Notes under the pieces: generated by a model
Told to the model about the DNA's origin: nothing
What the model saw: only the letters and a program-made list of their open reading frames with translations
Database searches by the model: none
Translations under genes and position numbers: made by a program
Source of the DNA: a virus
Lineage: Duplodnaviria; Heunggongvirae; Uroviricota; Caudoviricetes
Direction: 5' to 3' (one strand)
IMG/VR virus record: IMGVR_UViG_2516143071_000006
DNA: 62,764 nucleotides
In this document: piece after piece, positions 12,301 through 61,040 of the stretch
How positions within the stretch are numbered: position 1 is the stretch's first letter
Layout: each line of letters opens with the position of its first letter

Positions 12301-14706
12301 TATTTCCCCCTGGCGACCAGCGGCATTTTCCGGTGCCTGCTCACGTCCTTTCTGGAAACTCTGGCCCTTCACCTCACCGGTTGTGGTAAAACGACCACCA
12401 CGTCCGGCCTGATTTTCATCCGGCGTACGCGCCACTTCTCCTGGTAACGGATATCCCTGTCCGGGATGAATATCGCCGGGAGCGGGAAGGCGTGGACGCT
12501 CAGTTAACTCCTGTGCTGTCGGACCGGCATCACCTTCAGCCATCTGGGAACGCACCAGTTCTTCCGCCGTCGGCGCGTTGCCACGGGCAAGACGGGCCTG
12601 CACTTCTGTATCATCCCCCGTAAAACCACGGAATCGCGGGTCACGCATGAACGCGGGCTGTTCCATCGGATCAGCATCAGTAATACGCTCTCCGTCAGCC
12701 AGAGTGTTAATGGTCTCCGTTGCCACATCTTCAGAGAACGCAGGATTATCCATTTCAACGGCATACTGATTCTCGCCTTTCTTCACTACGGACGGTTTCA
12801 GGCCGGTGGCGCTGGCATTGCGGAAAACGTCGCTCCCCAGAGCACTTTTTTCATCCGTGAAATAACGGTTGTCCGGACGCACCTTTTCAATGCGTTCTGC
12901 TGGTCTGGACGCACCACTCTCGTTAATTTCAATACGAACTTCATCCGGATCGCGGAACCGCACCGTCGGGTAAATACTCCCGTCGCCATCATCCGCATTT
13001 TCCGGCTGTGGCTGTGCCTCCGGTCTGGCCTCCCGCTGAGGGCGAAGCACATCACGTATTGCCTGTAACTGCTGCTCTTCAGTATCAGTACGCCCTTCCT
13101 TCTGGCTGAGTTTTCGGTATTCCTCAAGCAGTTCAGGGCGCGGCTTCGCCTTCAGCTCATCCATCACCGCCTGTCGCTTCGCCTGTTCATCCAGTTCATT
13201 CAACAGCTGGCTGGCGGCTTCCCGGCGATGAACGGCAGACGTGTCTCCCTCATGTGCCATATCCGCATCAGCATACTGTTCCAGAAGCTGCTCGCGATTC
13301 ATCCCCTGCATAGATTCACGATGCTGTGCCACCGGATCAACCGGTTCGGGTTGCGGAGCCGATTCGTCCTGAGGAACGCTTTCAGCCTCACGCATGGCTG
13401 CTTCATCTGCCGCCTGACGTTTTCCACGATATCCGGCAGCCGCACCGAATGGTGCCCCCATTGCAGCACCAAGGGCTGCACCTTCGATCGTTGCGTCAGC
13501 CACGCCCTCCCACGGTGACACATCCATTCCGGCGGTCTCACGCAATGCCGTGTTTTCCTGATAGCGTGAATAGCCACCCTGCGCCGCATTAATCGTCCCC
13601 TGTTCCGTGGCATTTCTGACAATGCCGCTTTTAACGGTCTTCGCCGTGCCCCGCATCGCCAGATTAAGCAACTGAGCATCGCCCAGTTTTGCCGCCATGG
13701 CATTCACAGCCAGCAATTCAGGATCGGTTGCCAGTTGCGCACGCACCTCATCGGCAACACGCTCTTTTGCCAGGTCCATTTTCTGGCGGTCAGTAAGCTG
13801 CGCGTGCTGCGGATCTGCATCAATTGACAAAAAGGTCTGCTGAAATTTCGGTGACTTCGCCAGCTCAGAATAATCCGCGTTAAGAACAGCATCTGCCGCT
13901 GCCATTGCACTCCGCCCTTGCGCACTGACAGTGGAATGGGTGATCAGGCCTGCCTGGAAAAAATCCGGCATTTTTTTATCGACAGCTTCGGCTGCCAGTG
14001 CTGTGGCTCTTTCCGGCTGCATCCCTGCCGCGATGTATTTTTTCTCCAGCCCGGCGGTCAGCACTTTTCGCAGAGTGACATCACCCAGCTTTTTAGTCAC
14101 ACCGCCTGCAACCATATCCGGTACAAGCGCACCAATCAGGTTAACCCCTTTCGCTACCCAGACCGCTGAATCATCATATCCTTCAGTCATCGGTGTATTC
14201 AGCGCCCGCTGCGCCCCCGGCGACATCTTGCCAGTCAGCCATTCATCCGAGGCTTTAGCGCCGCCACTGACTGCCTTGCCTGTGACCTTCAGACCTTTAC
14301 CGACAGTATCAGTAACCGCATTTTTTCCATCAGGCAGAGTGTCGATGACCTCATCCGCCCCCTTGCTGCCACCGACAAAAATATCCTGAACAGTTGCTAC
14401 TCCCGGCAGCCCCATACGGCTGAACTCATTTAAAATACGTGCCCCTGTTTTTACCGGGCTCTGAATCATCGCATCACCGAGTCCACGGGCCATTTCCCCT
14501 GTCCCCCGGACGGACTGGGCGACACCTTTCCCCATAGTTGGCAATACATCGCCCAGGCTGAACGACGTGCTGTTGTCCTTCCAGCGATTGGGATCGGAGA
14601 AAAACACATCATAGCTGTCAGTCTCTCCCGGCTGCTGAATGTTCAGGCTGTTGCGGCTCTGGTTGCCAAATTGCGCTTCAGGGCGCTGTTCATCGGAATA
14701 AGCCAT
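6355..14706 (-). CDS. Giant 2783-aa phage protein with a zincin-like HEXXH motif; likely virion-associated polyvalent or ejected protein
   Basis: Uninterrupted 8.35-kb ORF at the distal end of the late gene block; ALAHEWFHSLD motif; long low-complexity acidic and Pro/Gln-rich linkers. Confidence 0.85.
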   Translation of the reverse strand: MAYSDEQRPEAQFGNQSRNSLNIQQPGETDSYDVFFSDPNRWKDNSTSFSLGDVLPTMGKGVAQSVRGTGEMARGLGDAMIQSPVKTGARILNEFSRMGLPGVATVQDIFVGGSKGADEVIDTLPDGKNAVTDTVGKGLKVTGKAVSGGAKASDEWLTGKMSPGAQRALNTPMTEGYDDSAVWVAKGVNLIGALVPDMVAGGVTKKLGDVTLRKVLTAGLEKKYIAAGMQPERATALAAEAVDKKMPDFFQAGLITHSTVSAQGRSAMAAADAVLNADYSELAKSPKFQQTFLSIDADPQHAQLTDRQKMDLAKERVADEVRAQLATDPELLAVNAMAAKLGDAQLLNLAMRGTAKTVKSGIVRNATEQGTINAAQGGYSRYQENTALRETAGMDVSPWEGVADATIEGAALGAAMGAPFGAAAGYRGKRQAADEAAMREAESVPQDESAPQPEPVDPVAQHRESMQGMNREQLLEQYADADMAHEGDTSAVHRREAASQLLNELDEQAKRQAVMDELKAKPRPELLEEYRKLSQKEGRTDTEEQQLQAIRDVLRPQREARPEAQPQPENADDGDGSIYPTVRFRDPDEVRIEINESGASRPAERIEKVRPDNRYFTDEKSALGSDVFRNASATGLKPSVVKKGENQYAVEMDNPAFSEDVATETINTLADGERITDADPMEQPAFMRDPRFRGFTGDDTEVQARLARGNAPTAEELVRSQMAEGDAGPTAQELTERPRLPAPGDIHPGQGYPLPGEVARTPDENQAGRGGRFTTTGEVKGQSFQKGREQAPENAAGRQGEILEGETVRRGLPSPDEQNATAPVREGLPAPESQRGVDMPQPESLPRMVRDSLPELAQQAEARRQTGDNRQTITDVPDTEVPVPVDKPSTHQQVRGAKIEDFGEEIKGAAKHRYAQLAEAMGKTLEDGEYATQPLSKLFPKPDYARLEKEGVDSDTLAMMALYRSEIPTRTSRNMQKWISIVKSGREATAGMLEGKIPAAKLADMMDSKPGLRSMSDTWKLLRTLSALQIDKASGYRVRSGVYSFVGGKRYDPPQMMYSLRDSKGRDLFFSESRDELLKKAKAYFDEQGSRERETPATSADDRITFDVYRHKASGDIFIGYGKNRQKLKGGFESARDAHDYVRTHRDELVNQVKALREVSREEQRNATNRDRTGPERRKGDVSPEQFSDAFGFRGVQFGNYVESPRRQADLNRAYDSLHDLADVLNVPTKALSLNGRLGLAFGARGKGKAAAHYEPGEVAINLTKGNGPGALAHEWFHSLDNYFGRYDVSTDGKITSGGDYMTEAQRAGRVFKDGRYVDAEYPVRQEVYDAFKGVMKAINSSDMLRRSERLDGVRSKPYWSTDVEMAARAFERYVQDKARMAGVENDYLVNIRKADDHGQLDTYAYPTNAELDGGIREAFDHLFRTLKTRETDKGVEFYSRKGVTRTPEGNLISDVNRSAEAKGSPVPQVEAVARGVISGIKDSDLKVRVVKSQKEAEALAGESFDGYGKVHAFYRPDKREIVLVADNIPDGRTVREKLRHEIIHHAMEHVVTPAEYQTIIKTVLKTRDSDNATIREVWRKVDASYGKESPEVQAGEFLAHMAEKQPIKFVAAWERVVALVKGVLRRTGLLKPTELNDIRLVRETIRTLGQRVREGYTPREDGADASSQYSRSGKPDPFKVPEGEGERYRDDLARMMKSLRSTDLTVNIGRTPPVLRHLGAPDLPLVISRDTVRKATNGVKHVVPMDVIERLPELMHDPDAIYRSATERNAVVMLLDAVDKNGDPVVSAVHMKAVRSRLEINKVASVYGTENGKKLKSMEMTGLTLYRREKLSRDNLLHRGLQLPKGEHSYRGSVDKILYPEDIRKGPYYSRTSSLTPEETIASRFVRQMQDKFQVLKAVQENIRKTGGKIDDSNNAYMAEELFHGKAENDLNVMKERYVQPLAKLLADYKIAQADLDEYLYARHAPERNAHIAKINPKMPDGGSGMTNAEAAEIMQRVRNSGKQAQYDRLAGIIDDMLARRREIIREAGLEESGVVDAWQKAYRYYVPLKGQDVDGVVSQPRTGKGFTIGGRESKQAMGRASRAQSPSTQAIQDLSESLIRNRKNEVGNAFLKLVQDNPDKDYWQVFTDDRPDTMRVIAERKDQETGETIREVVERPVPMAMMADRYFTTKKDGKTYYIKLHDPRLMRAMKNMGPETSNAVIRTLGKVNRFLATVNTSYNPEFLVSNFIRDVQTAVMNLKAEQGRSDGKLKGLDNLSALAVVKDSRSAMSAVYASLRGKTLTGKGAQWQKVWKEFVEDGGKTGWFNMGDLEGQQKEMDRLVSLAKGGWKGQSIGAWHSFLNLVEDANGAVENALRLSAYKHARDAGLSRQQAASLAKNMTVNFNRRGEQGALMNSLYMFANASIQGTANLVRTLGHLNGDGPLLERLRWKNLNVPQKIALAAVGAGYLLGSLNRSVAGEDDDGVNWYDKVPYHVKERNLVIMKSMFGGRAGEYWSIPLPYGYNVFFLLGHTSEGVAAGDLTASRAAGNVVGGILGAFSPIGSETSETLSGALLKNAAPTILRPFANLAMNENFMGAQIYQENMPFGTPKPDSQLGRRSTPEAYKAFAFWLNAFSGGSQYRPGAVDITPESLKFWIDYISGGTGRFISKTTDAAVKSLNGIDIPEQQVPFLGKISGEVMPYADQQKMYDRMTEVAQYHAELKSLTGAERTAFIDENNGKLLMNGLMQDTRKRLKDLRKQRDAIYADSSLSLAQQAAMVKSVERDMKVAVDRFNREYNKKVGVD

Positions 14707-14774
14707 ACAGACTCCATAAAAAAACCCGGCACAATGACCGGGTATCAGGAAATAGTATTAACGGGAATGGTGAA

Positions 14775-16040
14775 TTACTGCGCGTAATTCTGTTTCAGAC
14801 CACGGATAAACTCAGATGCAGAGGCCGCGCTATCATCCCTGGCCTGTTCCCCCCTGGCCTTTTGAATACGGAGAAAATTCGCATACCCGTGTTCCAGCAA
14901 TTTCTGATTCTGAGGCTCCAGCATTTCTGGCTGACGGGAGGCCACTTCTCTGGCAAATGCCTGCTTATCCGGATCATCACCCGCCCAACTGGTAATCCCT
15001 TGTTGAATTTTTTGCTGCTGAATTTGCTGCTGATACTGCGGCAGTCCCATCGAAGCATAATATTGCGTCACTGCTCCCTGCGCATCACCGCCGTCCTGTG
15101 CAACCTTTATCGCTACCTGGCTGGCTCCTTTCTGAAGTTGATCCGCAGAAAGTCCCTGCTGCTTCGGCGTGAAATAGCCGAAATTTTTCGAAATTTCCGC
15201 GAATTTACTGCGATCCCTGACAAGCTCAACAGCCTTATCAACAGGCACCGCCAGCACGGTTTGATCATCAGGATGTGCACTGCCGTATTCCGTAACGGGT
15301 TTATGTGCTGTAGAGCCATCACTGTATGTGAGATCAAGGCCGATAAGTATGTACCCTTCCTGCTGTGCCGGTACTATACTGCCAATCCTGGCCTCTTTTA
15401 TCGTCTTTTTCCCGGTTGAATCGGGCATGCCAATACGCTGTTGCAGTTCCGGGCCAAACACCCCGGAAAGGACATCAAGATTCTCCGGCGTATTAAGTGA
15501 AGCGATAGCCCTGTCTGGCTTGTCATCAAAGATTTTTTGCAGGTTGTTCACGGCCTGACCCGCTTTCGCTACATAGCCATCATTCGCCATCAGCCTCAGC
15601 GGATTACCCTCTGACAACTGGCCGTAAAGACGCATTGCTGCATCCCGATCGCCAGCATCCACAGCCTTTCCAAGCGCCGCCATCACAGGCTGATCGCGCG
15701 CCAGCATATCGTTATACTCAAGCCGTCGCTGGTTGTATTTCTGCATCCGGAGTCGCTGCTGCTCCATACCCAGCGACGCATTCCGGTAATTCTGGTTGGC
15801 GTTAAACTCCCTTTCCTGCAGTGCATAATTACGGTCGTCGACTTTGGCTCTGTAATCAAAGTTCCGCTGATCAACGTCTTTATTATGTTCAAACTGCGAC
15901 TGTGCAAATTCAAAATCGCGCTCGTTATTTTTCTGTTGTTGAGCAAGCTGTGCTTCTCGCAAACCAAGTTCCTTACGACGGGTCATTGCCTGGTCAACCG
16001 TGCTGAATCCGGCAAGTAAACCCTGTGCAAATCCGCTCAT
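14775..16040 (-). CDS. Hypothetical coiled-coil protein (possible internal virion or ejection protein)
   Basis: 421-aa ORF, Gln/Glu/Arg-rich helical N-terminus; immediately upstream of the giant ORF. Confidence 0.55.
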   Translation of the reverse strand: MSGFAQGLLAGFSTVDQAMTRRKELGLREAQLAQQQKNNERDFEFAQSQFEHNKDVDQRNFDYRAKVDDRNYALQEREFNANQNYRNASLGMEQQRLRMQKYNQRRLEYNDMLARDQPVMAALGKAVDAGDRDAAMRLYGQLSEGNPLRLMANDGYVAKAGQAVNNLQKIFDDKPDRAIASLNTPENLDVLSGVFGPELQQRIGMPDSTGKKTIKEARIGSIVPAQQEGYILIGLDLTYSDGSTAHKPVTEYGSAHPDDQTVLAVPVDKAVELVRDRSKFAEISKNFGYFTPKQQGLSADQLQKGASQVAIKVAQDGGDAQGAVTQYYASMGLPQYQQQIQQQKIQQGITSWAGDDPDKQAFAREVASRQPEMLEPQNQKLLEHGYANFLRIQKARGEQARDDSAASASEFIRGLKQNYAQ

Positions 16041-18341: not shown

Positions 18342-19079
18342 TCAGAATTTCAGGCCAATGCCTGCAAATAAACCATCAGTTTTCCAGTCGCCAGAGCCTG
18401 AGCTTTCATAAGTGACGTCCATAGTAACACTTTCATTGAAGTTAAATTGCGCGCCGACAGACCATGCAATAGACGTTTTTTTGGTGCTGTTACTTTCAGA
18501 AAAACTACCGGCACCATGATTAAGATTGTCGTTAATTTTCAAGTCAGTGGTGACTTTTGCAACCCCCATACCAGCCATTGCATACACACTGAGGTATTCG
18601 TTAAACCGCCACGAAGGACCGGATAGTAGACTCCAGTAATTAGCCCTGATATCAGTTCTCGCTGAAGCTGCCGGGTTTTTTACCTCTCGTGATGGAGCGG
18701 AAGGCTTAACATCAATAAATGCCTGCGCATTAGTCATGGAGCGCGCCCATGTAAAAGAGGCTATAACACCCAGTTCATCAGTTATCTCGTAACGATACCT
18801 GATGCTCATCCCCAGGGGGCTTTTGGCTGTGCCGTCATGCCCCCGGGCAATAGCATTTTCGTATTCACCTGATGAATTAAAATGGTTTACGTTTACAACA
18901 TTCCTGAACGTATCCCGGTTATAAACACCCGCGTCTCTAACAAAATCCTTCAGCCCGGGGAAGCGTATGTGTGCAAACCCGAGAGATACCGTACTATCGC
19001 CTGATGCTGCATTTACCTGTGCAGTTAAGCAACTCATCACCAGAACTGCACACGCAAAAAATTTCATGATACTTTTCAT
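18342..19079 (-). CDS. lom: Lom/Ail/OmpX-family outer-membrane beta-barrel protein
   Basis: Signal peptide (MKSIMKFFACAVLVMSCLTAQVNA), alternating beta-strand pattern, C-terminal aromatic residue. Confidence 0.8.
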   Translation of the reverse strand: MKSIMKFFACAVLVMSCLTAQVNAASGDSTVSLGFAHIRFPGLKDFVRDAGVYNRDTFRNVVNVNHFNSSGEYENAIARGHDGTAKSPLGMSIRYRYEITDELGVIASFTWARSMTNAQAFIDVKPSAPSREVKNPAASARTDIRANYWSLLSGPSWRFNEYLSVYAMAGMGVAKVTTDLKINDNLNHGAGSFSESNSTKKTSIAWSVGAQFNFNESVTMDVTYESSGSGDWKTDGLFAGIGLKF

Positions 19080-23545: not shown

Positions 23546-24091
23546 CTAAACCTTATAAACAGATATAGTTTTTCCGTTTTGATTAAAGAGCCAGTTTTTA
23601 GAAACTATTGCACTATAATGCCGAGTATTGTTTGCAAATGATAATGGTGTGAATGAGATATTGGTTCCATCAAATGATAGAGTAAAGTTTTGATTAGGCC
23701 CGTTCGTTAAGCCCAGATACATCTTGGTAGAGTCTTGCGTTTGAGAAAGATGCGTAATTGAACAACCTAACAACGAACCATTTATTGAACCAGCCGGATT
23801 TTGTGTTTGCACACGGCTGGAAACGGCAGAGCCAGCACCTGTCGTTGTTGAGTTATTAGAATACCCTCCATAGTTATTGTTTACAGGAACAATTTGTATA
23901 TTTGTTGCCTGAACTAAAACAACAAAATTTGAACGACCTACAGTGATAGAAAAGTCCTGTACACTTTTCCCAACCATTTGCGACATATAAAACGGTGTAC
24001 TTAGCTTAAGTTTGGCACCTGCCGATTTCATTGACCTTTCACCAGTTACACTAACGGCAGAGGAGCCAACCCATCCGGAAGCAACCCCCAT
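23546..24091 (-). CDS. Hypothetical virion protein
   Basis: 181-aa Ser/Thr/Asn-rich ORF next to the tail fibre gene. Confidence 0.45.
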   Translation of the reverse strand: MGVASGWVGSSAVSVTGERSMKSAGAKLKLSTPFYMSQMVGKSVQDFSITVGRSNFVVLVQATNIQIVPVNNNYGGYSNNSTTTGAGSAVSSRVQTQNPAGSINGSLLGCSITHLSQTQDSTKMYLGLTNGPNQNFTLSFDGTNISFTPLSFANNTRHYSAIVSKNWLFNQNGKTISVYKV

Positions 24092-39170: not shown

Positions 39171-41081
39171 TTATGCGGCTGCTCCAGCTTTGTTTGCTTT
39201 AACTTCCACCGTATCAATAAGTACAGGGTAGGTTTCTGCACTACCTGTAATATCCGTAATGACAAACCTGTTGAGTCCATTAGCAGTATTGGCCCATTTC
39301 ACCAGGTCAAACGCCTGTCCATCCACACCATCGAGCACCGGAGTAACATTAATGCTGTTACTGCCCTTAAATTTAAATGCAAGCGTATGCCAGTCATGGT
39401 CGAATGCGCCAAACGTGCCAAGTTCTTTTTGTTGATTAACTGTATGATGGTATGCAACATTAATACTGGCTTTATCTGTCTGGACAAAGAAAGAACTCAG
39501 ATGGCCTTCACCACCCTCACCCGGCCATTCCGCTATTCGCCAGTACAAACCAAAGGCATACTTGTTTCTGGTTGTCTCAAGATTGACGTTTTCGGGGATT
39601 TTAAACCGGACAGCAATTTCCCCGCCTTTTTCCAGTAAAAGTTTTGCCTTGTCTGCAGCAATATCACAGTACATTGACCAGGATTTCGCGCTGTTATTTT
39701 TCTCAATTCGCAGAGCTTTATTGCCGCTGTCATCAACCAGTGTGCGCCTGCCATACACACCGTCCCAGCCATAGGGTTTCAGCTGATTGTCTGTAGCTTT
39801 TTTGGCATCGTAAAAAATTACAGACTCTGAGGTGGTAACCGGTCTGTCTGGAACAACCACCCCGGCAGTACCATTAACAAACGCAGAAGACTTACCCGCG
39901 CAGCTCAGAATCGCAGTTGCCAGACGGTCGGAAATAATCCCACGGCGAGCCCATGAACTGAAATGGCTCGCCCTGTCCTGTGACGTCCAGGTGGCTGAGC
40001 TGTCACGCCATTTCGAACCGTAATAACCGATACCCGGAATGTCCGGGTCTTCTTCCGGTTTGTTCGTCGGCACATTCACCCCGTTCTCATCGGTCATGAA
40101 CGGTACGAAATGGATATTCTTTTCCGTTTTATTTTTATAGCTGCCGTACACCGTCTGGTACGTGGATTCGTTCTTCTGCTTCCAGAAATACGTCGTGTCC
40201 CCGCATATCCAGGGAACACCGCCAGCAGAGCCACCGACGCACTGGCCTGCCATATCCGCCAGGTCTGCACGGAATTTATCAACCAGCGCACCAAACTGTG
40301 CGGCATGATTTGCCGGCGTACCGCCAAAATCAAATTCCCCCTGCATCCACACCACGGCAAACAGCACATTTTTCGGGTTCTTCTCCAGTGCCGCTTTTGT
40401 TCGACCGATAAGGTCCTTATACAGCGGCTTGTCCACACCCCAGCGGGTTGAATTCTCCGAGGCGCCACTCGCGTCACTGTATGTGCCATCAGCTCCGGTG
40501 GTGAACGCTGAACCACCACGACAGCACGGAACCAGCAGAATGCCCGCATTCGCCGGTATAAACGGCAGCAGTTTTTTGGCGATATGCAGCCCCTGCCCCA
40601 CGGTTCCGTACTGCCCCTTTGACAGGTCCGCTTTCGGATGGTTAAGACGGCTCATGTCCTGCACATCATGCAGACAATGGTCCGCCGGAATGATGTCGTT
40701 ATATTTGCATGCTGCACCGCCCGGTGTCACCGTACTGCGACGCGCTAACTGTTTAATACGTGGATCAGGGCTGTCGAATGTATCCGGTAATGGCAGTCCC
40801 TCACCGTATGACATACCATTGGACTGACCAGCAAGCGCGATCACATAGTAATATTCTGGCGCAACAGAAGGCGCTGAGGTCGTCGGACGGTTGCCTGGCT
40901 CCTCTGGTGATGAGATGCTCCCCTCACTCACAACTGGCTGGATGAACTCCGCACCATAACCAGCTGTCGAAATCAGCGCACTACCATAAGGCTGCCACCC
41001 TTCCTTCAGTTTTTGAGTTATTCGTTTCGCAAGGTCTGACGGCGACGCCGCCCTGACAACATCATAGTGTTTAAATGCCAT
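39171..41081 (-). CDS. nanS: NanS-p-type sialate O-acetylesterase (DUF1737 N-terminal domain plus SGNH esterase)
   Basis: MAFKHYDVVRAASPSDLAKRITQKLKEGWQPYG N-terminus and GQSNGMSYG esterase motif; located between Q and S. Confidence 0.8.
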   Translation of the reverse strand: MAFKHYDVVRAASPSDLAKRITQKLKEGWQPYGSALISTAGYGAEFIQPVVSEGSISSPEEPGNRPTTSAPSVAPEYYYVIALAGQSNGMSYGEGLPLPDTFDSPDPRIKQLARRSTVTPGGAACKYNDIIPADHCLHDVQDMSRLNHPKADLSKGQYGTVGQGLHIAKKLLPFIPANAGILLVPCCRGGSAFTTGADGTYSDASGASENSTRWGVDKPLYKDLIGRTKAALEKNPKNVLFAVVWMQGEFDFGGTPANHAAQFGALVDKFRADLADMAGQCVGGSAGGVPWICGDTTYFWKQKNESTYQTVYGSYKNKTEKNIHFVPFMTDENGVNVPTNKPEEDPDIPGIGYYGSKWRDSSATWTSQDRASHFSSWARRGIISDRLATAILSCAGKSSAFVNGTAGVVVPDRPVTTSESVIFYDAKKATDNQLKPYGWDGVYGRRTLVDDSGNKALRIEKNNSAKSWSMYCDIAADKAKLLLEKGGEIAVRFKIPENVNLETTRNKYAFGLYWRIAEWPGEGGEGHLSSFFVQTDKASINVAYHHTVNQQKELGTFGAFDHDWHTLAFKFKGSNSINVTPVLDGVDGQAFDLVKWANTANGLNRFVITDITGSAETYPVLIDTVEVKANKAGAAA

Positions 41082-41846: not shown

Positions 41847-42380
41847 TTACGATCGTAAACTATTTTTTCGCTGATAAAATACAGAGCTTCTCCCTCCCGG
41901 CAATTCACGCTCAACATACCGATCCATCTCAAGCCTCACTCCCAGCATCATCAGCATGCCTTCAACAATCCCCTCCGCTTTGTGAAGGCGTTTACCTATA
42001 CAGGTGTCAGAGCACCCATGTTTCCGTGCCAGCGCCATGAACGTCTCCCCCAACACGTAGTAATCAACCAGCAAGTCATGCAGATCGCGATTGTTCCGGT
42101 AAAGGCGGGCTATGCACCCGCATATCACCATCGCATCATCGTCACAGCACTGTGGACGTGATTTTACTTTTTCGGGGATCAGTCCCTTAAATCCGGCAGC
42201 AATGGGCGACCATGTAACATCCTCATAGTTATTTACCGCCCATGCCCCCCAGCGCTCAAGAACCTGCCGGATATCACGCATCAGTATCTTTACCCCATCC
42301 GCGATGAACCATAAGGACGCCATTGACGACGGCGTGCTTTTTCGCATCTTTATCATCAATGTATTTTCTGACTGTAGCAC
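41847..42380 (-). CDS. Q: Late antiterminator Q (non-lambda type); true start probably an internal Met near 42281
   Basis: Position after the nin genes and before the late terminators and lysis genes; Cys-rich region; overlaps ninH end. Confidence 0.65.
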
Positions 42381-44809: not shown

Positions 44810-45117
44810 ATGCGCATTTTTAAAAACGCCTGGTTTGAGCGACTTGCACGCAAAACAAAATATCCGACCAATCACTGCGCGAAATTGTTAAACAGGCTGA
44901 TAACGGGCTTATCTCAGCAAACCTGGGTAACGGCGTTATCAAGCAACGTCTGCCACGAGTCGGTGGCGGCAAATCTGGCGGTTATCGCACAATCATTTTC
45001 TATCGCGTCGGCACAAGGGCCTTTTTCGTATATGCATACGCAAAAAATGAACGTGAAAATATAACCGCTACTGAGGAAAGTGCATTTCGGAAGGGGCTCC
45101 TCACGTACTCAATCTAA
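44810..45117 (+). pseudogene. RelE/ParE/HigB-like toxin interrupted by a +1 frameshift in an A-run
   Basis: Frame 1 reads MRIFKNAWFERLARK; frame 3 continues QNKISDQSLREIVKQADNGLISANLGNGVIKQRLPRVGGGKSGGYRTIIFYRVGTRAFFVYAYAKNERENI...; junction at aaaa 44852..44855. Confidence 0.6.
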
Positions 45118-45171
45118 CAGATGAACAACTGGCACAACTGATTCTACAGGGTCAGTTTACGGAGGTACCCA

Positions 45172-45489
45172 ATGAGTAAAAATTACCGCAGTGATGCGCT
45201 TGCATCCGTACATGAAATGATGGAATCGCTTCATGATATCGGCGCAGTAACGAAACAGACTATGCGAGAATTCGATGAAACTTGTCTCCAGCCAGCGCCG
45301 GTAATGTCTCCGGAAAGGATCCGTGCACTGCGCGAACGAGAGCATCTGTCTCAACCTGTTTTTGCCAGATACCTCAACGTCAGTAAAAACCTGATATCAG
45401 ACTGGGAACGTGGTGTAAAACGGCCGGGAGGTGCCGCTCTTCGCCTTCTTTCAGTCGTAGAGAAAAACGGAATCCAGGTAATATCATGA
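45172..45489 (+). CDS. HTH (XRE-type) antitoxin-like protein, HigA-like partner of the upstream toxin
   Basis: 105 aa, C-terminal HTH (LSQPVFARYLNVSKNLISDWERG); immediately downstream of the toxin reading frame. Confidence 0.65.
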   Translation: MSKNYRSDALASVHEMMESLHDIGAVTKQTMREFDETCLQPAPVMSPERIRALREREHLSQPVFARYLNVSKNLISDWERGVKRPGGAALRLLSVVEKNGIQVIS

Positions 45490-45539: not shown

Positions 45540-46025
45540 TTAGTTTTGCTGTTCTATTTTAAGCTTGATAGTTTCATACAAAACAATAGTTGCGCCTGTT
45601 TTACATAATTCCCGGCTGTCATACGCACGAGACCAATAACACAACCAGTTCTCGAGATCTTCTCGAGTATAGGTTTTGCAGGCCAGTCCCTCTGCCATTT
45701 CCACGATTTCATCGCCTGGTGCTGTTAACTCATAGCCATTCAACAACAAGAAGACATAACCAGCCATCATAGCTGTTCGTTTGTTTGCATTAGCAAATGG
45801 ATGATTCTGAATCAGACTTTCAATCAATACTGATGCCAGTACAAACATGTCATTAGTCTGTTCATACCATCGAACCATGCTGGGACGAGACTGAGAAGAA
45901 CTTAAATTATCAACACTCAGCACACTAACAGGTTCATCTGGTGTTTGAAGCTCAATTAAAAGGCGATTAATTTCGGTAAGATCATCAAACGAAAGGTAGT
46001 GCACTCCTTCAACAATCTCAGCCAT
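45540..46025 (-). CDS. doc: Fic/Doc-family toxin
   Basis: HPFANANKRTA motif (HPFxxGNKR type). Confidence 0.7.
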   Translation of the reverse strand: MAEIVEGVHYLSFDDLTEINRLLIELQTPDEPVSVLSVDNLSSSQSRPSMVRWYEQTNDMFVLASVLIESLIQNHPFANANKRTAMMAGYVFLLLNGYELTAPGDEIVEMAEGLACKTYTREDLENWLCYWSRAYDSRELCKTGATIVLYETIKLKIEQQN

Positions 46026-46043
46026 AGAGCACAATACCCATCA

Positions 46044-46268
46044 TTACACTTTTGAAAGTTCTTCCATTGCCTTCTCGTAACGAGAAAAACCGAAATCGAA
46101 AGCATTTTTCACCTGCTCACGATGAGTGCAATTTTCATCGATAGCCGGGCGCGGAGCTGCCACAACGCTTTTATCGCGAGGGGGAATAGTCAATCGCGGG
46201 TGTTTTTTTAGTGCGTAGCTCATTGGGTGTACCCTTACTTCTCCGTCCTGTTCTTTAACAAAAATCAA
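46044..46268 (-). CDS. Putative antitoxin for the Doc-like toxin
   Basis: Small ORF 10 nt upstream of the toxin on the same strand; no family assigned. Confidence 0.4.
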   Translation of the reverse strand: MIFVKEQDGEVRVHPMSYALKKHPRLTIPPRDKSVVAAPRPAIDENCTHREQVKNAFDFGFSRYEKAMEELSKV

Positions 46269-46432: not shown

Positions 46433-46588
46433 TTACTCCTCAGGTTCGTAAGCTGTGAAGACAGCAACCTCCGTCTGACCGGTTCGGATTCGTACCTCGC
46501 AGAGGTCTTTCCTCGTTACCAGTGCCGTCACTACGACGGTAATACAGATGACGATCAGGGCGACTAACATCGCCTTTTGCTGCTTCAT
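46433..46588 (-). CDS. hok: Hok-family type I toxin (HokD/RelF-like); an in-frame upstream extension to 46645 is mok-like
   Basis: MKQQKAMLVALIVICITVVVTALVTRKDLCEVRIRTGQTEVAVFTAYEPEE is near-identical to HokD/RelF as remembered. Confidence 0.8.
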   Translation of the reverse strand: MKQQKAMLVALIVICITVVVTALVTRKDLCEVRIRTGQTEVAVFTAYEPEE

Positions 46589-50984: not shown

Positions 50985-51281
50985 TCAGATATTCATCAGG
51001 ATTTGCTCAGAACGTCCGGCCCCAACCGGACGTTTTTTATTTGCATGAACGTTAATGGCATGCTGGAAAGCCCGGCTGATCGGACTGATATCAGATGCCA
51101 TCTGAAACGCGCATAAAATCGCCGCGATGTATCGCCAGTCGGTACGACTGACCTTCGATTCATGACAGCCAATCATCTTCGCCAGTCCCCTTTGCGTCAG
51201 AGCTGACAGGTTGATAAGTAAATCCGTTTCAGCGCGATCGATATCGCGCTGTGATAGTTTGCTGTAACTTGTTTGTTCCAT
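50985..51281 (-). CDS. cII: CII-like transcriptional activator
   Basis: 98 aa with an HTH and C-terminal NKKRP...RSEQI motif like lambda CII; position after cro and nutR. Confidence 0.7.
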   Translation of the reverse strand: MEQTSYSKLSQRDIDRAETDLLINLSALTQRGLAKMIGCHESKVSRTDWRYIAAILCAFQMASDISPISRAFQHAINVHANKKRPVGAGRSEQILMNI

Positions 51282-51366: not shown

Positions 51367-51412
51367 TCGCTTTGTCAGCGACGTAGGACGAATGTCCATT
51401 GTGAAAAGAGCG
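51367..51412 (-). promoter_or_regulatory. nutR candidate: boxA-like cgctctttt plus boxB hairpin
   Basis: Minus strand, just downstream of cro; boxB stem-loop ucgcugacaaagcga. Confidence 0.45.
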
Positions 51413-51419
51413 GTGTTAC

Positions 51420-51620
51420 TTATGCAGTTGTTTTTTTGTTACTTGGGAAGGGCTTTATTTCTTCCGCATAAACGCTTCCATCAGCGTTTATAGTTAAAAA
51501 AATCTTTCGGCCTGCATGAATGGCCTTGTTAATCGCGCTTTGATATACGCCGAGATCTTTAGCCGTCTTGGTTTGCCCAAAGCGTATTGCATAATCTTTC
51601 AGGGTTATGCGTTGTTCCAT
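51420..51620 (-). CDS. cro: Cro repressor, lambda-type
   Basis: [66 protein letters not shown], near-identical to lambda Cro as remembered. Confidence 0.9.
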
Positions 51621-51635
51621 ACAACCTCCTTAGTA

Positions 51636-51710
51636 CATGCAACCATTATCACCGCTAGAGGTAAAATAGTCAACACGCACGGTGTTAGATATTTATCCCT
51701 TGCGGTGATA
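51636..51710. promoter_or_regulatory. OR operator region with pR and pRM: OR1 51647..51663, OR2 51671..51687, OR3 51694..51710
   Basis: Matches the lambda OR1-OR2-OR3 layout and pR -35/-10 except for one base in OR1. Confidence 0.8.
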
Positions 51711-51717
51711 GATTTAA

Positions 51718-52434
<717 letters not shown>

Positions 52435-52480
52435 CAAGAAGCACAGGTATTAACAATAGCTTTCATGGTGATACGAATCA

Positions 52481-53023
52481 GTGGCTAAAAAAGGCGACTT
52501 TAAGCCTACCCAGAAAGAGGTTGACCAAGCTATTACTCGCTTGAAAAAAGTAACTTTTAGCGGAGTTACATGGACCGGAAGTGAGGGACGAACCCCAATC
52601 TGGTTTAAATTGGATCTCAAAGCTTTTGATGAAATTGGCAACCCAATCACAGGCATAAGATTTATGCTTCACTGGCGTCCTCCTATCGTTGAAGGGGTGG
52701 ATATAGTGAAGATTTCATTTGTGATGTTTCTTCATGACAGGCGCATTTACGCGCTTGATCCGTACCCTGCGGATAACAAGCCACACCGTAATAAATCTAT
52801 AGTGAACCATCCAGATTTTGTTGAGGTGGCTCGAGGTCCTCACTATCACATGTACTTCGAATCAGCTGGGGAAGAAATTGCACTTAAGCTTGAAACGAAC
52901 ATCAAGCCAGATGATTTTTTTGGCTACTGGAATTATTTTTGCGAGGCGCTTAATATCATATATGAAGGCAGCCCACCTTTACCTAATCAAGATAAATCAG
53001 GTCAGTTATCATGGGAAATGTAA
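52481..53023 (+). CDS. Unknown protein, first gene of a two-gene module in the rexA/rexB position
   Basis: 180-aa ORF 46 nt downstream of cI, co-oriented; AT-rich; no recognisable family. Confidence 0.6.
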   Translation: MAKKGDFKPTQKEVDQAITRLKKVTFSGVTWTGSEGRTPIWFKLDLKAFDEIGNPITGIRFMLHWRPPIVEGVDIVKISFVMFLHDRRIYALDPYPADNKPHRNKSIVNHPDFVEVARGPHYHMYFESAGEEIALKLETNIKPDDFFGYWNYFCEALNIIYEGSPPLPNQDKSGQLSWEM

Positions 53024-53787
53024 CGTGTTCAACAGTCATATCTAAGCTCGGGTTTGAATGCCACCCAATGAGCGACACGTTGCTGCGCGTTATTAGTCCA
53101 TTCACATACTACGATGATTGTGAGCAGATAAGTGTATTCGTTCAAGAGATGAGTGGTCAGTATAGGGTTACAGACTACTGCGATACATTGATGAATATTG
53201 AATCACGCGGCATCCACCTGACTAAAAAGAAAATTGATCTGATCAGGTCATCACTCGCTTCGCAAGGAATTTCATTAAATGACTCTGGAGAGATATCTGC
53301 GTGGGCAGATGAGTCGTCCGTTGGACAGGTAACTGCAAATGTTATTCGTGGTGGGATTCTTGCATCCGCCCAAACTGCTGATTGGTATGCTGAGGTCAAA
53401 GACGATAAGTTCGAAAAATGTGTAATCAGTTACTTAAAATCAGCAGGGCTTGGGAAGCGACTAGCCTTAAAGGAAAAAGTGAAAGGTATTAGTGGGCATA
53501 ACATTACTGTTCCGTTAACGCTAAGGAATGAGTCTCGACTAATACCACCAAAACGCGGGTTTACGGTAAGCCTTGCCAGCAGTAAGGGATGGAATACTGC
53601 CCACTCAACAGTTGGGAAGATTGTTGACTTAAGTCAGGTCGTTCCTGACATAAACAATAGATTTGTAATAGTTGACAGCGATGGGTTAACACCTGAGCTA
53701 CAGCAACTATCACTACTATTTAATGATACCGCACGAGTGTTGCCATTCCATACCAGAGACTCTTGGATTGAGTCTCTGGTAGCCTAG
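53011..53787 (+). CDS. Unknown protein, second gene of the module in the rexA/rexB position
   Basis: 258-aa ORF overlapping the upstream gene by 13 nt; ends about 180 bp before OL/pL. Confidence 0.6.
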   Translation: MGNVTCSTVISKLGFECHPMSDTLLRVISPFTYYDDCEQISVFVQEMSGQYRVTDYCDTLMNIESRGIHLTKKKIDLIRSSLASQGISLNDSGEISAWADESSVGQVTANVIRGGILASAQTADWYAEVKDDKFEKCVISYLKSAGLGKRLALKEKVKGISGHNITVPLTLRNESRLIPPKRGFTVSLASSKGWNTAHSTVGKIVDLSQVVPDINNRFVIVDSDGLTPELQQLSLLFNDTARVLPFHTRDSWIESLVA

Positions 53788-53970
53788 AAAAACCCGGCCT
53801 CAGCGCCGGGTTTTCTTTGCCTCACCCCCCCACCTAAAGACACATAACCAAATGTATTTATTGAAAAATAAATAGATACAACTCACTAAACATCGCAATT
53901 CAGATCTCTCGATCACCTCCCAAGCCACTCAACCCTGCAAAAAATAAATCCATATAAAAAACATACAGAT

Positions 53971-54039
53971 AACCATCTGCGGTGATAAATTATCTCTGGC
54001 GGTGTTGACATAAATACCACTGGCGGTGATACTAAACAC
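53971..54039 (+). promoter_or_regulatory. OL operator with pL promoter, lambda-type (OL3, OL2, OL1; -35 TTGACA, -10 GATACT)
   Basis: accatctgcggtgataaattatctctggcggtgttgacataaataccactggcggtgatact matches lambda OL/pL as remembered. Confidence 0.85.
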
Positions 54040-54101
54040 ATCAGCAGGACGCACTACTCACCAGGGCGGTGAATATACAACGATTCAAATATGAATCTAC
54101 G

Positions 54102-54281: not shown

Positions 54282-54665
54282 ATGACACGCAGAACTCAGT
54301 TCAAAGGCAATTCACGCTCTCATCGTCGTGAGCGTTTAAAGGCAAAGGCATTAGCTAACGGCGTGCTGGCCCGCGAAGAAGCAATAAGTTCAGAAGTATT
54401 ACACCGCCCTACTCTAAGCAGAGCGCAGATTCAGGCTAAAGGTACTCACGAAACGCCTGAGCGCATAGAAGACGCTAAGCCAATTAAGTTCATGGCACAG
54501 GACGTGATCTGGCAACAGAAAGAATACAGACGCAATCTGGAGCGAGCAGCCATTGTGTACGCGAATGAGTTTGGACATAAGCAACCAGAAACTGGTGTAT
54601 GTCTTCCAAACGTAGCCATTTACGCGGCAGGCTACCGGAAATCAAAACAACTGACGGCGAGGTGA
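54282..54665 (+). CDS. N: N antiterminator (P22 gene 24-like, not lambda N)
   Basis: Arg-rich motif NSRSHRRERLKAKA; C-terminus VAIYAAGYRKSKQLTAR; first gene after pL. Confidence 0.75.
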   Translation: MTRRTQFKGNSRSHRRERLKAKALANGVLAREEAISSEVLHRPTLSRAQIQAKGTHETPERIEDAKPIKFMAQDVIWQQKEYRRNLERAAIVYANEFGHKQPETGVCLPNVAIYAAGYRKSKQLTAR

Positions 54666-55382
54666 TTGATGACCACGCCTTCAGTTTTGCCGCAAAAATT
54701 ATGGCGTCCGCTTGCAGAGATTAAAAACTTCGTTGAAAAAATGCCTGATGGAGTTCGCCTTACGGAAGTTACTAAAAAAGTTAAGACATTTGCCGAACTG
54801 TCAGGAAAGGAGAGAAACCAGCTCATAGATTTTATCGATAAACGGGAAAGCATCATTGTATTTAAGGTCAGAAAAGAAGGTTCTGGTAACGGAGTAACCT
54901 TTTTCCGCCACAAAAAATATGGATATCCCAAACGGGAAGGAAACGTCACAATCATTAAGGACCTTCAATCAAAATTATGTACCAGATGCGGGCAGACAAA
55001 ATCAGTCAATGATTTTTATTCAGATGCCAGCAAGCGTGACGGGAGAGCCATTTATTGCAAGAAGTGCGAATCTGCAATGAAACGCTCACGCAGAGAATGC
55101 AACAAATTAATTCTGCAACAACAGGAACCTGAAATGAATAACCTCAAAGCAGTTTCACCTTCACCAGAAATACTCAGAAAACAGGCTGAAGAATTGCTGA
55201 AAGCCGCCGAAATTGCGGAGAAAAAACGCCAGGAAGATGATGCATTCAACAAAAAACTTGCGCCCTTAAAACTTGAAATTCTTCAGGCCGCCGGAAAAAT
55301 GCAGCTTAAACTGGACGAATTCATCGACTGTATGGATGAAATGAATAAAGCAGTTCAGAAGCTTAAAGAGCTGACCGCCTGA
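54666..55382 (+). CDS. Hypothetical protein with a zinc-ribbon motif and coiled-coil C-terminus
   Basis: 238-aa AT-rich ORF directly after N; CTRCG...CKKCES. Confidence 0.5.
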   Translation: MMTTPSVLPQKLWRPLAEIKNFVEKMPDGVRLTEVTKKVKTFAELSGKERNQLIDFIDKRESIIVFKVRKEGSGNGVTFFRHKKYGYPKREGNVTIIKDLQSKLCTRCGQTKSVNDFYSDASKRDGRAIYCKKCESAMKRSRRECNKLILQQQEPEMNNLKAVSPSPEILRKQAEELLKAAEIAEKKRQEDDAFNKKLAPLKLEILQAAGKMQLKLDEFIDCMDEMNKAVQKLKELTA

Positions 55383-57206: not shown

Positions 57207-59279
57207 ATGAGCGCTGATAAACAGACTTTTGCACTACACTGCGAAGCAAAAAACGATAAAGTCAGAAAACGCCTTGGCATCAAAGGCGGTTTTTTCTGGA
57301 CCGAGGCCAGAAAACTTTCTGTCGCAGTTTCCCGCTGCATTGCAGCCATGGACGATGCAGGCTACGACGAGGATGATTTCAAAAAACCCGTTCGCGTAAA
57401 TTTCCCCGTCGTGAATGACCTTCCACCGGAAGGCGTGTTTGATACTGAATTCTGCAACCGCTATGAAAAAGGCGGTAACGATGGCATCACCATGATGGCT
57501 ATCCCCTTCGATGACAACATCAACGGTGAAGATGCCACAACTGCTGGCGATGACAACGATAACCTGGACGGAACTATTCCGGATGATGTGGAGAAAAGCG
57601 AATCCCCGGACAGCGACGATGACTGTTCTGAGTGTGAAATTCCCGTCGCCACTCTGAGCCTTACTCATCGCTTCCTTCACCTCTTCTTATTCAGCAAAGA
57701 TGAAGATGGAAAATACCGGCATCATGCCACACCAGAACAACGCAATAACGTGATCCGTATGGAGATGGACACAGAGGACAGTTACCTTCAGAGCCTGCTT
57801 ACTGCTGTGCGCGCCGCGCATCATGAACTGGATAAACTGACGAACTATCACCTTAGTCGCCTGGCTGAATCTGTAGGGAAAGCATTCCCCCACTCTGCAA
57901 ATCATCGCATCAGCCCGGCTGAATTCGACAAGTTCATTTCCACCTGGATGAAAACTGACTACCTTGATCAGGGCCTGCTGACAAAAGAATGGCAGAACGG
58001 AAATTATGTTTCAGGCATTACCCGTACGCCTTCCGGTGCTAACGCTGGCGGCGGAAATATTACCGATCGTGGTGAAGGATTCAAACATGATAAGACATCA
58101 CTCGCACGAGATGTAGCCACCGGCGTTCTGGCCCGTTCAATGGATGTGGATATTTATAACCTGCACCCAGCACACGCAAAACGCGTTGAAGAAATCGTGT
58201 CAGAGAATAAGCCGCCCTTTTCTGTTTTTCGCGACAAATTTATCGCCATGCCCGGTGGGCTGGATTATTCCCGCGCCATTGTGGTGGCTTCCGTGAAAGA
58301 AGCACCAATCGGCATTGAGGCCATCCCGGCACGCGTGACTGAATATCTCAACAAAGTGTTGACCGAAACCGATCACACTAACCCGGATCCGGAAATCGTG
58401 GAAATTGCCTGCGGTCGCTCATCAGCACCGATGCCGCAGCGCGGAACAGCAGAAGGAAAACATGGCGATGAAGAAAAGCAACAAGCATCGGACACAATGG
58501 CTAATGAACAGGCAGCGCCTGAATCAGTGGAAGAAATTCCAGTTAAACATAATGAGGACACGCAATCACTGGAAAATGTCTCATCTGTAGAAACGAAATA
58601 CCAGGAACTGAGGGAGGAACTCAATAAAGCCAGGGAAAACATCCCCCCAAAAAATCCAGTCGATGCCGACAAATTACTGGCTGCCTCGCGTGGAGAATTC
58701 GTTGAAGGCATCAGTAACCCTGCTGATCCGAAGTGGGTTAAGGGGATCCAGACTCGCGACACTGAGGACCAGAATCAGTCCAAAGTGGAACAAATTGCCC
58801 CAGAAGCGGGACAAAACAGCCCGGATACGCAACAAAACGGGCCAGAAGAGCAACAGCCAGGGCCAGTAATGCAACAGGAAGTGGAAAAGGTTTGCACCAC
58901 ATGCAGTCAGAACGGTGGCGGCCATTGCCCTGACTGTGGTCCAGTAATGGGAGATGAAACTTACGCTGAAACTTTTGGAGAAAATGACGCCGCTGATGGA
59001 GAAGACTCAGCACAAACTGAGGAGAAGATCATTCAGGAAAACGCTGTTGATGCCGCTCAGGAGGGCGAAACCGTTGTTCAGAACGAGCCAGGCAGTGATA
59101 CGTCCGGCGATGACGCCAATTCTGAGCCAGTAACTCTCGACTGGAAAAGACAGCTCGTGATTGCCGCCGTCTATGGTTTGTGCGCCAACCCCGCATGTAT
59201 AGCCACAGCGCCAGCAATCCCTGATATCGCCATCATGATTGCCAACAGGCTTGAAAATTTCGGAGGTGATAAATCATGA
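57207..59279 (+). CDS. Large acidic hypothetical protein (690 aa) immediately upstream of gam
   Basis: Long ORF with Asp/Glu-rich tracts and a [16 protein letters not shown] motif; stop overlaps the gam start (ATGA). Confidence 0.6.
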
Positions 59280-59572
59280 ATGCCTGGCTTATCCCCGATC
59301 GCATTGAAGAGCAGTCATGGGCACGACACTACCAGCAAATTGCCCGTGAAGAAACTGAAGCTGAGCTGGCAGACGACCTGGAAAAAGGTCTGCCCCAACA
59401 CCTGTTTGAATCGCTATGCATCGATAATCTGCAACGTCACGGGGCCAGCAAAAAAGCTATTTCCCGTGCATTTGATGACGATGTCGATTTTCAGGAACGC
59501 ATGGCAGAACACATCCGCTACATGGCTGAAACCATCGCCCGTCACCAAATTAATATTGATTCAGAGGTATAA
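59276..59572 (+). CDS. gam: Gam (RecBCD inhibitor), lambda-type
   Basis: [22 protein letters not shown]...[13 protein letters not shown]...[14 protein letters not shown]...[11 protein letters not shown] resembles lambda Gam. Confidence 0.9.
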
Positions 59573-59577
59573 AACGG

Positions 59578-60363
59578 ATGAGTACAGCACTCGCAACGCT
59601 GGCAGGGAAGCTGGCTGAACGTGTCGGCATGGATTCTGTCGACCCACAGGAACTAATCACCACTCTTCGCCAGACGGCATTTAAAGGTGATGCCAGCGAT
59701 GCGCAATTTATCGCATTGTTGATCGTCGCCAACCAGTACGGCCTTAATCCCTGGACGAAAGAAATTTACGCCTTCCCTGACAAGCAGAACGGCATCGTTC
59801 CGGTGGTTGGCGTTGATGGCTGGTCCCGCATTATCAATGAAAACCAGCAGTTTGATGGCATGGACTTTGAGCAGGACAATGAGTCCTGTACATGCCGGAT
59901 TTACCGCAAAGATCGCAATCACCCGATCTGCGTTACCGAGTGGATGGATGAATGTCGCCGCGCACCATTCAAAACCCGCGAAGGCAGAGAAATCACCGGA
60001 CCGTGGCAGTCGCATCCCAAACGGATGTTACGGCACAAAGCCATGATTCAGTGTGCTCGCCTGGCCTTCGGATTTGCTGGCATCTATGACAAGGATGAAG
60101 CCGAGCGTATTGTCGAAAATACTGCATATACTACAGAACGTCAGCCGGAACGCGACATCACCCCGGTTAACGAAGAAACCATGTCGGAAATTAACGCCCT
60201 TCTTACTTCCATGGAAAAAACGTGGGATGACGACCTGTTGCCGCTCTGTTCCCAGATTTTTCGCCGCAACATTTACACATCTTCAGAACTAACACAGGCT
60301 GAAGCTGTGAAGGTTCTTGGATTCCTGAAACAGAAAGTCACAGAGCAGAAGGTAGCAGCATGA
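59578..60363 (+). CDS. bet: Bet (Red-beta single-strand annealing protein), lambda-type
   Basis: [66 protein letters not shown]... near-identical to lambda Bet as remembered. Confidence 0.95.
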
Positions 60364-61040
60364 CACCGGACATTATCCTGCAACGTACAGGGATCGACGT
60401 GAGAGCTGTCGAACAGGGGGATGATGCGTGGCACAAATTACGGCTCGGCGTCATCACCGCTTCAGAAGTTCACAACGTGATAGCAAAACCCCGCTCAGGA
60501 AAGAAATGGCCTGACATGAAAATGTCCTACTTCCACACCCTGCTTGCTGAGGTTTGCACCGGTGTGGCTCCGGAAGTTAATGCCAAAGCACTGGCCTGGG
60601 GAAAACAATACGAGAACGACGCCAGAGTCCTGTTTGAGTTCACCTCCGGCGTGAATGTTACTGAATCCCCGATTATCTATCGCGACGAAAGTATGCGTAC
60701 AGCCTGCTCTCCCGACGGTTTATGCAGTGACGGCAACGGCCTTGAGCTGAAATGTCCGTTTACCTCCCGGGATTTCATGAAATTCCGGCTCGGTGGTTTC
60801 GAGGCCATAAAATCAGCTTACATGGCCCAGGTGCAATTCAGCATGTGGGTGACTCGAAAAGATGCCTGGTACTTTGCCAACTATGACCCGCGCATGAAGC
60901 GTGAAGGCCTGCATTATGTCGTGGTCGAGCGGGATGAAAAATACATGGCTGGTTTTGACGAGATGGTGCCGGAGTTCATCGAAAAAATGGACGAAGCACT
61001 GGCTGAAATTAGTTTTGTATTTGGGGAGCAATGGCGATAG
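60360..61040 (+). CDS. exo: Exo (Red-alpha 5'-3' exonuclease), lambda-type
   Basis: [50 protein letters not shown]... near-identical to lambda Exo as remembered. Confidence 0.95.

Follow-up and report, generated by a model that had tools for sequence, protein, structure and literature searches.

A two-gene cassette in the rexA/rexB position of an Escherichia coli O104:H4 lambdoid prophage, a candidate exclusion module of the repressor operon

In phage λ, the interval between the repressor gene cI and the OL/pL region is occupied by the exclusion genes rexA and rexB. RexA is also reported to have a role in the lysis-lysogeny switch. Another protein encoded 3' of a prophage repressor, BstA, is an abortive-infection protein, and the stretch from cI to N is recognized as a hot spot of mosaicism (Owen et al. 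2021, PMC8585504). The present study deals with this interval in a stretch of 62,764 nucleotides (nt), IMG/VR record IMGVR_UViG_2516143071_000006, referred to below in its whole length as the window. The window is a lambdoid prophage of Escherichia coli O104:H4 in which the interval holds two open reading frames (ORFs), ORF-A and ORF-B; the 1461-nt stretch around the pair is 100% identical to many O104:H4 chromosomes. We put at roughly 60% the probability that the A-B pair is expressed in the lysogen as a module for exclusion or abortive infection, cotranscribed with cI and acting as a complex of its two products. This view is favored because the pair cleanly replaces rexAB, because the slot carries defense genes in other phages, and because of the conserved position of the pair, its matches to the candidate defense family PDC-M24, its listing by DefensePredictor and the purifying selection acting on both genes.

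Accessory defense cassettes in repressor operons, in which a sensor-plus-nuclease-fold protein has a partner, are a well-known kind of element, and the A-B family has itself already been catalogued and flagged by computation. What would be new here are an experimentally established function for the pair, its mechanism, and the structure and role of ORF-A.

An exact exchange for rexA-rexB

The elements of the immunity region are listed below in coordinates of the window, with the strand wherever one is assigned.

50985-51281, minus strand: cII, an ORF in the immunity region
51420-51620, minus strand: cro, an ORF of 66 amino acids, divergent from cI; product 97% identical to λ Cro (64/66)
51621-51720: OR operators with pR and pRM; 1 of 100 bases differs from λ OR
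51721-52434, plus strand: cI repressor gene, 237 amino acids, HTH_3 and Peptidase_S24 domains (Pfam); 98.7% protein identity to λ cI (234/237)
52435-52480, plus strand: spacer of 46 nt between cI and ORF-A, with a GGTGA Shine-Dalgarno-like motif in its sequence
52481-53023, plus strand: ORF-A, 180 amino acids, GTG start (WP_001074607.1); annotated in RefSeq as hypothetical protein
53011-53787, plus strand: ORF-B, 258 amino acids, ATG start (WP_000528776.1); annotated in RefSeq as DUF1828 domain-containing protein
53793-53818, plus strand: intrinsic terminator, hairpin CCCGGC-CUCAGC-GCCGGG followed by UUUUCUUU; RNA fold of -17.0 kcal/mol and U-tract
53960-54040 (approximate), plus strand: OL operators and pL, from λ homology; pL-like TTGACA-17-GATACT at 54005-54033
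54282-54665, plus strand: gene for an N antiterminator of 127 amino acids, not of the λ type; Pfam N_peptide E = 3.7e-14, 25.6% identity to λ N

Comparison with λ by blastn yields two blocks of homology, one on either side of the pair. The first (51406-52434, 97% identity) extends to the final base of the cI stop codon, and the second (53786-54072) begins inside the stop codon of ORF-B and is 89.5% identical to λ 35831-35550, a segment made up of the last rexB codons, the terminator and OL/pL. Since homology to λ is interrupted from the cI stop to the end of rexB, the A-B pair fills the rexA-rexB space exactly: the 1.35-kb segment 52435-53785 is a precise swap for the cI-rexA spacer, rexA and nearly all of rexB. 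This bears out the initial annotation, which had recognized two ORFs of these lengths in the rexA/rexB slot, overlapping by 13 nt and lying in the orientation of cI. The same annotation had described the flanks as essentially those of λ, which is accurate for cI, Cro, OR and OL/pL and not for N; the DNA of the N region is 97-99% identical to HK97 and PhiR5_2. It had also called the two genes AT-rich relative to cI and N. That description overstates a slight difference (42.4% and 43.5% GC in ORF-A and ORF-B, versus 45.4% in cI and 49.2% in N), and composition is consequently a weak argument for a defense module.

The identity of the OR region to that of λ leads us to infer that pRM is the lysogenic promoter for cI, ORF-A and ORF-B; a pR-like site lies within the same region (51673-51645). 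The spacer between cI and ORF-A contains no terminator-like or promoter-like site detectable in our scan, and its fold is weak and lacks a U-tract. A 7-codon upstream ORF, ATGGTGATACGAATCAGTGGCTAA (52465-52488), runs over the GTG start of ORF-A in a different reading frame and may be a translational-coupling element or a product of chance. The 13-nt overlap between ORF-A and ORF-B suggests that translation of the two genes is coupled. Beyond ORF-B, the hairpin at 53793-53818 is the counterpart of the terminator found 3' of λ rexB; it was not picked up by the terminator scan and is clear on RNA folding. The pL promoter is directed away from the cassette, towards N. Promoter-like sites within ORF-B, at 53411-53440 and 53645-53672, are no commoner than in shuffled sequence and are not taken as an internal promoter comparable to λ pLIT.

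The likeness of the pair to rexA-rexB thus lies in the locus (from the cI stop to the terminator before OL/pL), the orientation, the number of genes and the probable cotranscription with cI. It does not extend to the proteins. As noted in the initial annotation, ORF-A and ORF-B have no RexA- or RexB-like features: their best blastp match to the Rex proteins has an E-value of 0.9, no Rex match was obtained for them in Pfam or PADLOC, and neither contains a membrane-spanning stretch (maximum 19-residue hydropathy 1.22 for ORF-A and 0.79 for ORF-B, versus 2.39 for RexB), whereas RexB has membrane segments. The modeled folds differ as well, ORF-B combining DUF1828 with a restriction-endonuclease-fold domain and ORF-A being a beta protein with no match in the PDB.

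A survey of the genes that follow a λ-type cI shows that the occupant of the slot varies. The slot holds rexAB in λ, hicAB in mEp234 and HK106, gp49-gp48 (without assigned function) in HK97 and, in ev099, the gene for an NYN protein with weak PADLOC matches to HEC-09/NYN. In PhiR5_2 (PV340546.1), which matches the window at 99% identity in the cI and N flanks, a gene at positions 1567-2328 stands in for the A-B cassette. Its product, annotated in the record as a hypothetical protein, is a KilA-N/BstA homologue of 253 amino acids (PADLOC BstA, E = 2.5e-20). The resemblance to the A-B pair is one of position, 3' of the prophage repressor; in contrast to the pair, BstA is a single KilA-N-domain protein, and it has no homology to ORF-A or ORF-B. 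The slot is, therefore, a cassette hot spot holding known defense or toxin-antitoxin genes.

Pairing, repressor linkage and matches to defense candidates

Comparison with the copy from Pantoea gave a proportion of nonsynonymous differences (pN) of 0.135 for ORF-A and 0.107 for ORF-B, and a proportion of synonymous differences (pS) of about 0.8, which is saturated. The low pN relative to the saturated pS indicates that both ORFs are real genes under purifying selection; pN/pS is used here instead of the ratio of substitution rates, dN/dS, because of the saturation of synonymous sites. Of 5426 complete E. coli genomes, 61 carry the exact cassette, which is absent from sequenced phage records. 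A sister clade, with 51% and 40% protein identity, is carried by phages ev207, ev017, PhiR57_1 and PhiR63_2 and by one Shiga toxin phage (Stx1a), where a different cI lies upstream.

The pairing of the two genes and their position behind a repressor are maintained well beyond these close relatives. ORF-A lies directly 5' of ORF-B in 79 of 80 viral loci from IMG/VR, the overlap measuring 13 nt in 45 loci and 4 nt in 34; the lone locus in which the two are not adjacent is a frameshifted copy. For 75 of these 79 loci, a co-oriented gene for an S24-type repressor lies upstream, usually at a distance of 39-112 nt, and the remaining loci have shorter helix-turn-helix (HTH) repressor-like genes at the repressor position. 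This arrangement recurs in all eight genome loci from Pantoea, Providencia, Yersinia, Xenorhabdus, Thorsellia and Izhakiella, and in all seven loci of remote ORF-A homologues. Burkholderia phage phi644-2 shows the same arrangement, its gp48 aligning with the ORF-A profile with an hhalign probability of 94.5%. In Pseudomonas phage VB_PaD_phPA-G (PP083311.1), an unannotated ORF-A homologue of 194 amino acids (2420-3004) is encoded two genes 3' of a CI-like repressor and overlaps an annotated DUF1828 gene (3001-3756) by 4 nt. Outside the IMG/VR set, ORF-A directly precedes ORF-B in all complete loci examined, and the pair is located 3' of the maintenance repressor in nearly all loci. The S24-type repressors of the 75 viral loci fall into 21 clusters when their N-terminal domains are grouped at ≥80% identity, and with at least 21 repressor types represented, the cassette must be regarded as tied to the maintenance-repressor operon and not to one immunity type.

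Two further observations were made in the course of this survey. The record IMGVR_UViG_2548876529_000017 contains, at positions 2588-3896 and behind the same cI, a decayed copy in which ORF-A is split into segments of 114 and 68 amino acids and the N-terminus of ORF-B is truncated, indicating that the module can be lost through frameshift. In several loci (L004, L008, L009, L015 and L106), an extra ORF of about 80-115 amino acids, without a Pfam match, separates the repressor gene from ORF-A. In some branches this ORF may serve as a third component, or it may be a small cassette in its own right.

The link to the repressor operon raises the question of whether the pair serves the development of the phage itself, either, as has been reported for RexA, by modulating induction or the lysis-lysogeny switch, or by acting on DNA at establishment or induction. 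Cotranscription with cI would fit such a role, as would the linkage of the pair to the switch in 21 or more immunity types and the nucleic-acid-enzyme fold predicted for ORF-B (see below). However, the cassette is both dispensable and exchangeable. In phages that share this cI, the slot is filled by unrelated genes or by other cassettes, and only the 61 E. coli genomes mentioned above, out of 5426, possess it. A core switch function would not be so freely swapped, and for this reason we consider a developmental role improbable.

Sequence comparisons that bear on a defense function involve PDC-M24. The PDC group comprises 145 candidate systems collected by "guilt-by-embedding" in BREX, DISARM and type I restriction-modification loci (Payne et al. 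2024, bioRxiv 10.1101/2024.01.29.577857). Judged by E-values of the profile search, the matches of the window proteins are weak: ORF-A matches PDC-M24A over its C-terminal half only (E = 3.8e-4, 18.8 bits), and ORF-B matches PDC-M24B with E = 5.4e-7 (27.5 bits). PDC-M24B is also matched by all 12 diverse ORF-B relatives that were compared (best E = 4e-15), and PDC-M24A by several of 19 ORF-A relatives (best E = 4.1e-6). No other family in PADLOC-DB was matched by ORF-A, ORF-B or their relatives. On these profile comparisons the relation to PDC-M24 is real but distant. The two share the two-gene, A-then-B architecture and similar sizes; they differ in that ORF-A exceeds the models by about 30 residues and in that PDC systems were defined inside BREX, DISARM or type I restriction-modification loci, whereas the A-B branch resides in prophage repressor operons.

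A second flag comes from DefensePredictor, in which the E. coli pair of the sister clade is listed as "Predicted novel defense gene" with log-odds of 5.64 for WP_000968518.1 and 4.90 for WP_001062368.1, the cut-off being 4 (Science 2026, PMC13092281). The cluster representative of WP_001062368.1, the product of the smaller gene, is WP_001074607.1, that is, ORF-A itself. A literature search with DUF1828, DUF6978, PDC-M24, the RefSeq accessions and the PHROG identifiers retrieved no functional study.

These matches also bear on the idea of a lysogenic conversion function unrelated to phages, acting on host physiology or virulence, or of some other role. The host is a pathogen, O104:H4, and BstA was phenotypically linked to virulence before its role in defense was found (PMC8585504). 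Still, ORF-A and ORF-B lack both signal peptides and membrane segments, the family is spread over temperate phages whose hosts and niches are unrelated, among them those of Pseudomonas, Burkholderia, Xenorhabdus and Thorsellia, and its profile matches point only to defense candidates. We are accordingly inclined to give such a function little credence.

The two proteins and how they might act

Residues 30-112 of ORF-B match the Pfam family DUF1828 (PF08861) with 40.9 bits against a cut-off of 22, and the protein belongs to PHROG 1960 (E = 3e-119), which has no assigned function. Structural modeling predicts a type III secretion chaperone-like fold for the N-terminal DUF1828 domain and, for the C-terminal domain, a DUF1829-like restriction-endonuclease fold in which the alpha-beta-beta-beta-alpha-beta core is present. 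Pfam DUF1829 (PF08862, clan PDDEXK) was not detected in ORF-B by hmmscan; it is found in gp47 of phi644-2, a remote homologue (23.4 bits, cut-off 22.2), and a published HHblits analysis of the sister protein WP_000968518.1 places it at residues 155-241 with a probability of 98.8. Polar residues conserved across the family are C6, C17, D36, D55 and E94 in the N-terminal domain, and S161, H163, D206 and an acidic residue at position 222 in the C-terminal domain. Judging from its modeled fold, the nuclease-like domain may bind nucleic acid and might conceivably cut it.

ORF-A is a member of a small family, with 22 cluster representatives among 1.84 billion proteins. Its match to Pfam DUF6978 (PF22398) is confined to residues 98-159 and remains below threshold (23.6 versus 29.6 bits), and three close homologues have a precomputed PF22398 match. 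The protein belongs to PHROG 2017 (E = 7e-74), likewise without assigned function. NCBIfam returned no matches for ORF-A or ORF-B. The structural model of ORF-A is confident and mostly beta, and no fold in the PDB matched it. Neither single-sequence nor profile searches of the PDB returned a meaningful match, and the best match of the ORF-A profile was a His-tag artefact. Residues R88, D93, H102, N104, G119, H121 and H123 are conserved, and the invariant Arg/Asp/His/Asn/His/His cluster suggests a metal-dependent catalytic or sensing site. The C-terminal S-G-Q tail is also conserved, and is modeled as disordered. The initial annotation had considered the two proteins unknown and of no nameable family; this must be amended in view of the above-threshold DUF1828 domain, the two PHROG families and the weak PDC-M24 matches.

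These features allow a possible mode of action to be outlined. In the lysogen, ORF-A and ORF-B would be transcribed with cI from pRM, and from pRE while lysogeny is being established, with transcription ending at the hairpin just 3' of ORF-B. Translational coupling would set a fixed A:B ratio, and the two products would assemble into a complex in which the DUF1828 domain of ORF-B docks the disordered, conserved tail of ORF-A, much as type III secretion chaperones hold extended peptides. The restriction-endonuclease-fold domain would engage nucleic acid, possibly cutting it, and the His/Asp/Asn cluster of ORF-A would be catalytic or sensory. Infection would trigger the complex and result in a block of phage or host nucleic-acid functions, shielding the lysogen from superinfecting phages as rexAB does, and as BstA does from the same slot in sibling phages. 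It is tempting, though clearly more speculative, to regard the pair as a mechanistically new immunity module of the repressor operon, with ORF-A, a protein of a fold not solved before, as the true effector or sensor, the DUF1828 domain restraining it through the ORF-A tail, and a degenerate nuclease-fold domain reading invading or replicating phage DNA. Such a module might couple exclusion to the lysis-lysogeny switch, a coupling that is possible because the pair travels with at least 21 repressor specificities, from enterobacterial phages to those of Pseudomonas and Burkholderia.

The same anatomy lends itself to a different interpretation, in which the pair is a toxin-antitoxin-like addiction module that stabilizes the prophage or causes post-segregational killing, one protein being a toxin and the other restraining it, and any effect on phages is incidental. 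The genes are small, tightly coupled and overlapping; hicAB is found in the same slot of mEp234 and HK106, and TacA/GNAT and HicA-like genes lie beside A-B in remote loci. The chaperone-like domain of ORF-B could sequester ORF-A, and a DUF1829 protein has been proposed as an antitoxin-like partner in HipAD. We nonetheless find this interpretation unlikely. Searches of Pfam and NCBIfam and fold searches revealed no recognizable antitoxin DNA-binding domain and no known toxin fold in either protein, and the pair tracks the repressor operon instead of behaving as an autonomous, self-regulated locus. Moreover, prophage toxin-antitoxin modules often act in defense, so that the two interpretations overlap.

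Among other defense systems, HipAD/DS-6 (PMC13092281) resembles the A-B pair in that DS-6B contains DUF1829, the Pfam family of the C-terminal domain in ORF-B relatives. It differs in that DS-6B combines DUF1829 with DUF3037 and has a HipA-like kinase as partner; the system includes no DUF1828 domain and no ORF-A-like protein. The defense effectors Can2/Card1 and NucC, which combine a sensor with a PD-(D/E)xK nuclease, differ from ORF-B, which has no CARF domain and no cyclic-oligonucleotide signaling partner, and in which the D...(D/E)xK motif is not evident.

A number of points weigh against the exclusion or abortive-infection function that we favor. Position alone is no proof of a role in defense, since the slot also holds toxin-antitoxin genes and RexA acts in the lysis-lysogeny switch. 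The PADLOC matches of the window proteins are weak, and PDC systems are candidates only (bioRxiv 10.1101/2024.01.29.577857). The accessions and contig of the sister pair are absent from the DefensePredictor tables of cloned or validated units, and the overall validation rate in that work was 45% (PMC13092281). Because DefensePredictor takes neighboring genes as input, its flag is not independent of the positional argument. No experiment on the A-B pair or on PDC-M24 was found in the accessible literature. In the validated HipAD/DS-6 system, the DUF1829 domain has been proposed to be a DNA-binding partner and not the effector (PMC13092281). As for ORF-B, the catalytic D...(D/E)xK is not evident when judged solely from the alignment and the secondary structure: at the beginning of the second strand, S161-G162-H163 stands where the catalytic Asp is expected, and the third strand has no (D/E)xK. 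With the canonical residues not evident, nuclease activity is doubtful. The genomic logic of the lysogen-expressed exclusion or defense module proposed in the initial annotation is borne out and strengthened by the clean swap, the contents of the slot, the repressor linkage and the two computational flags.

If active, the A-B pair would add a mechanistically uncharacterized two-protein system to the prophage defenses of the repressor operon, beside RexAB and BstA. It would provide a first function for the DUF1828, DUF1829-like and DUF6978-like families and a validation of PDC-M24, flagged in two independent computational screens. The near-obligate position of the pair behind the repressor in phages of several proteobacterial orders recommends it as a model for studying how prophages arm their hosts and avoid self-targeting at induction. 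In the epidemic O104:H4 lineage, the cassette could shape which phages superinfect, Stx phages included.

Other features of the prophage

For the N ORF at 54282-54665, RefSeq has only a pseudogene fragment of 69 bp ("regulator, missing N-terminus") in the O104:H4 and uropathogenic E. coli records, which is likely an annotation miss. Directly 3' of N lies an ORF of 238 amino acids (54666-55382, WP_000211196.1), whose product carries CxxC...CxxC motifs together with a coiled-coil-like region at the C-terminus; neither a Pfam match above threshold nor a PADLOC match was obtained for it. The gene is found 3' of N in PhiR5_2 as well. Other genes in the window that were identified by their products or modules are as follows.

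6766-15117: 933W-like podovirus structural module with an 8.3-kb LPD38 gene
18378-18518: second Hok/Gef gene, among tail genes
23717-23944: Cor exclusion lipoprotein
39171-41081: SASA/NanS-p esterase, in an Stx-phage-like late region
41847-42281: Q antiterminator, in the Stx-phage-like late region
44911-45489: RelE/ParE plus HTH gene, in a toxin-antitoxin cluster of the nin region
45540-46223: Doc with a small upstream ORF, in the nin region
46433-46588: HokD, in the nin region

The interval between Q and the esterase gene contains no stx gene and no tRNA gene, and ARAGORN detected no tRNA in the whole window. The pL operon encodes a RecE-family exonuclease (57207-59279) in addition to a complete Gam-Bet-Exo set (59276-61040), so that one prophage carries two recombination nuclease systems.

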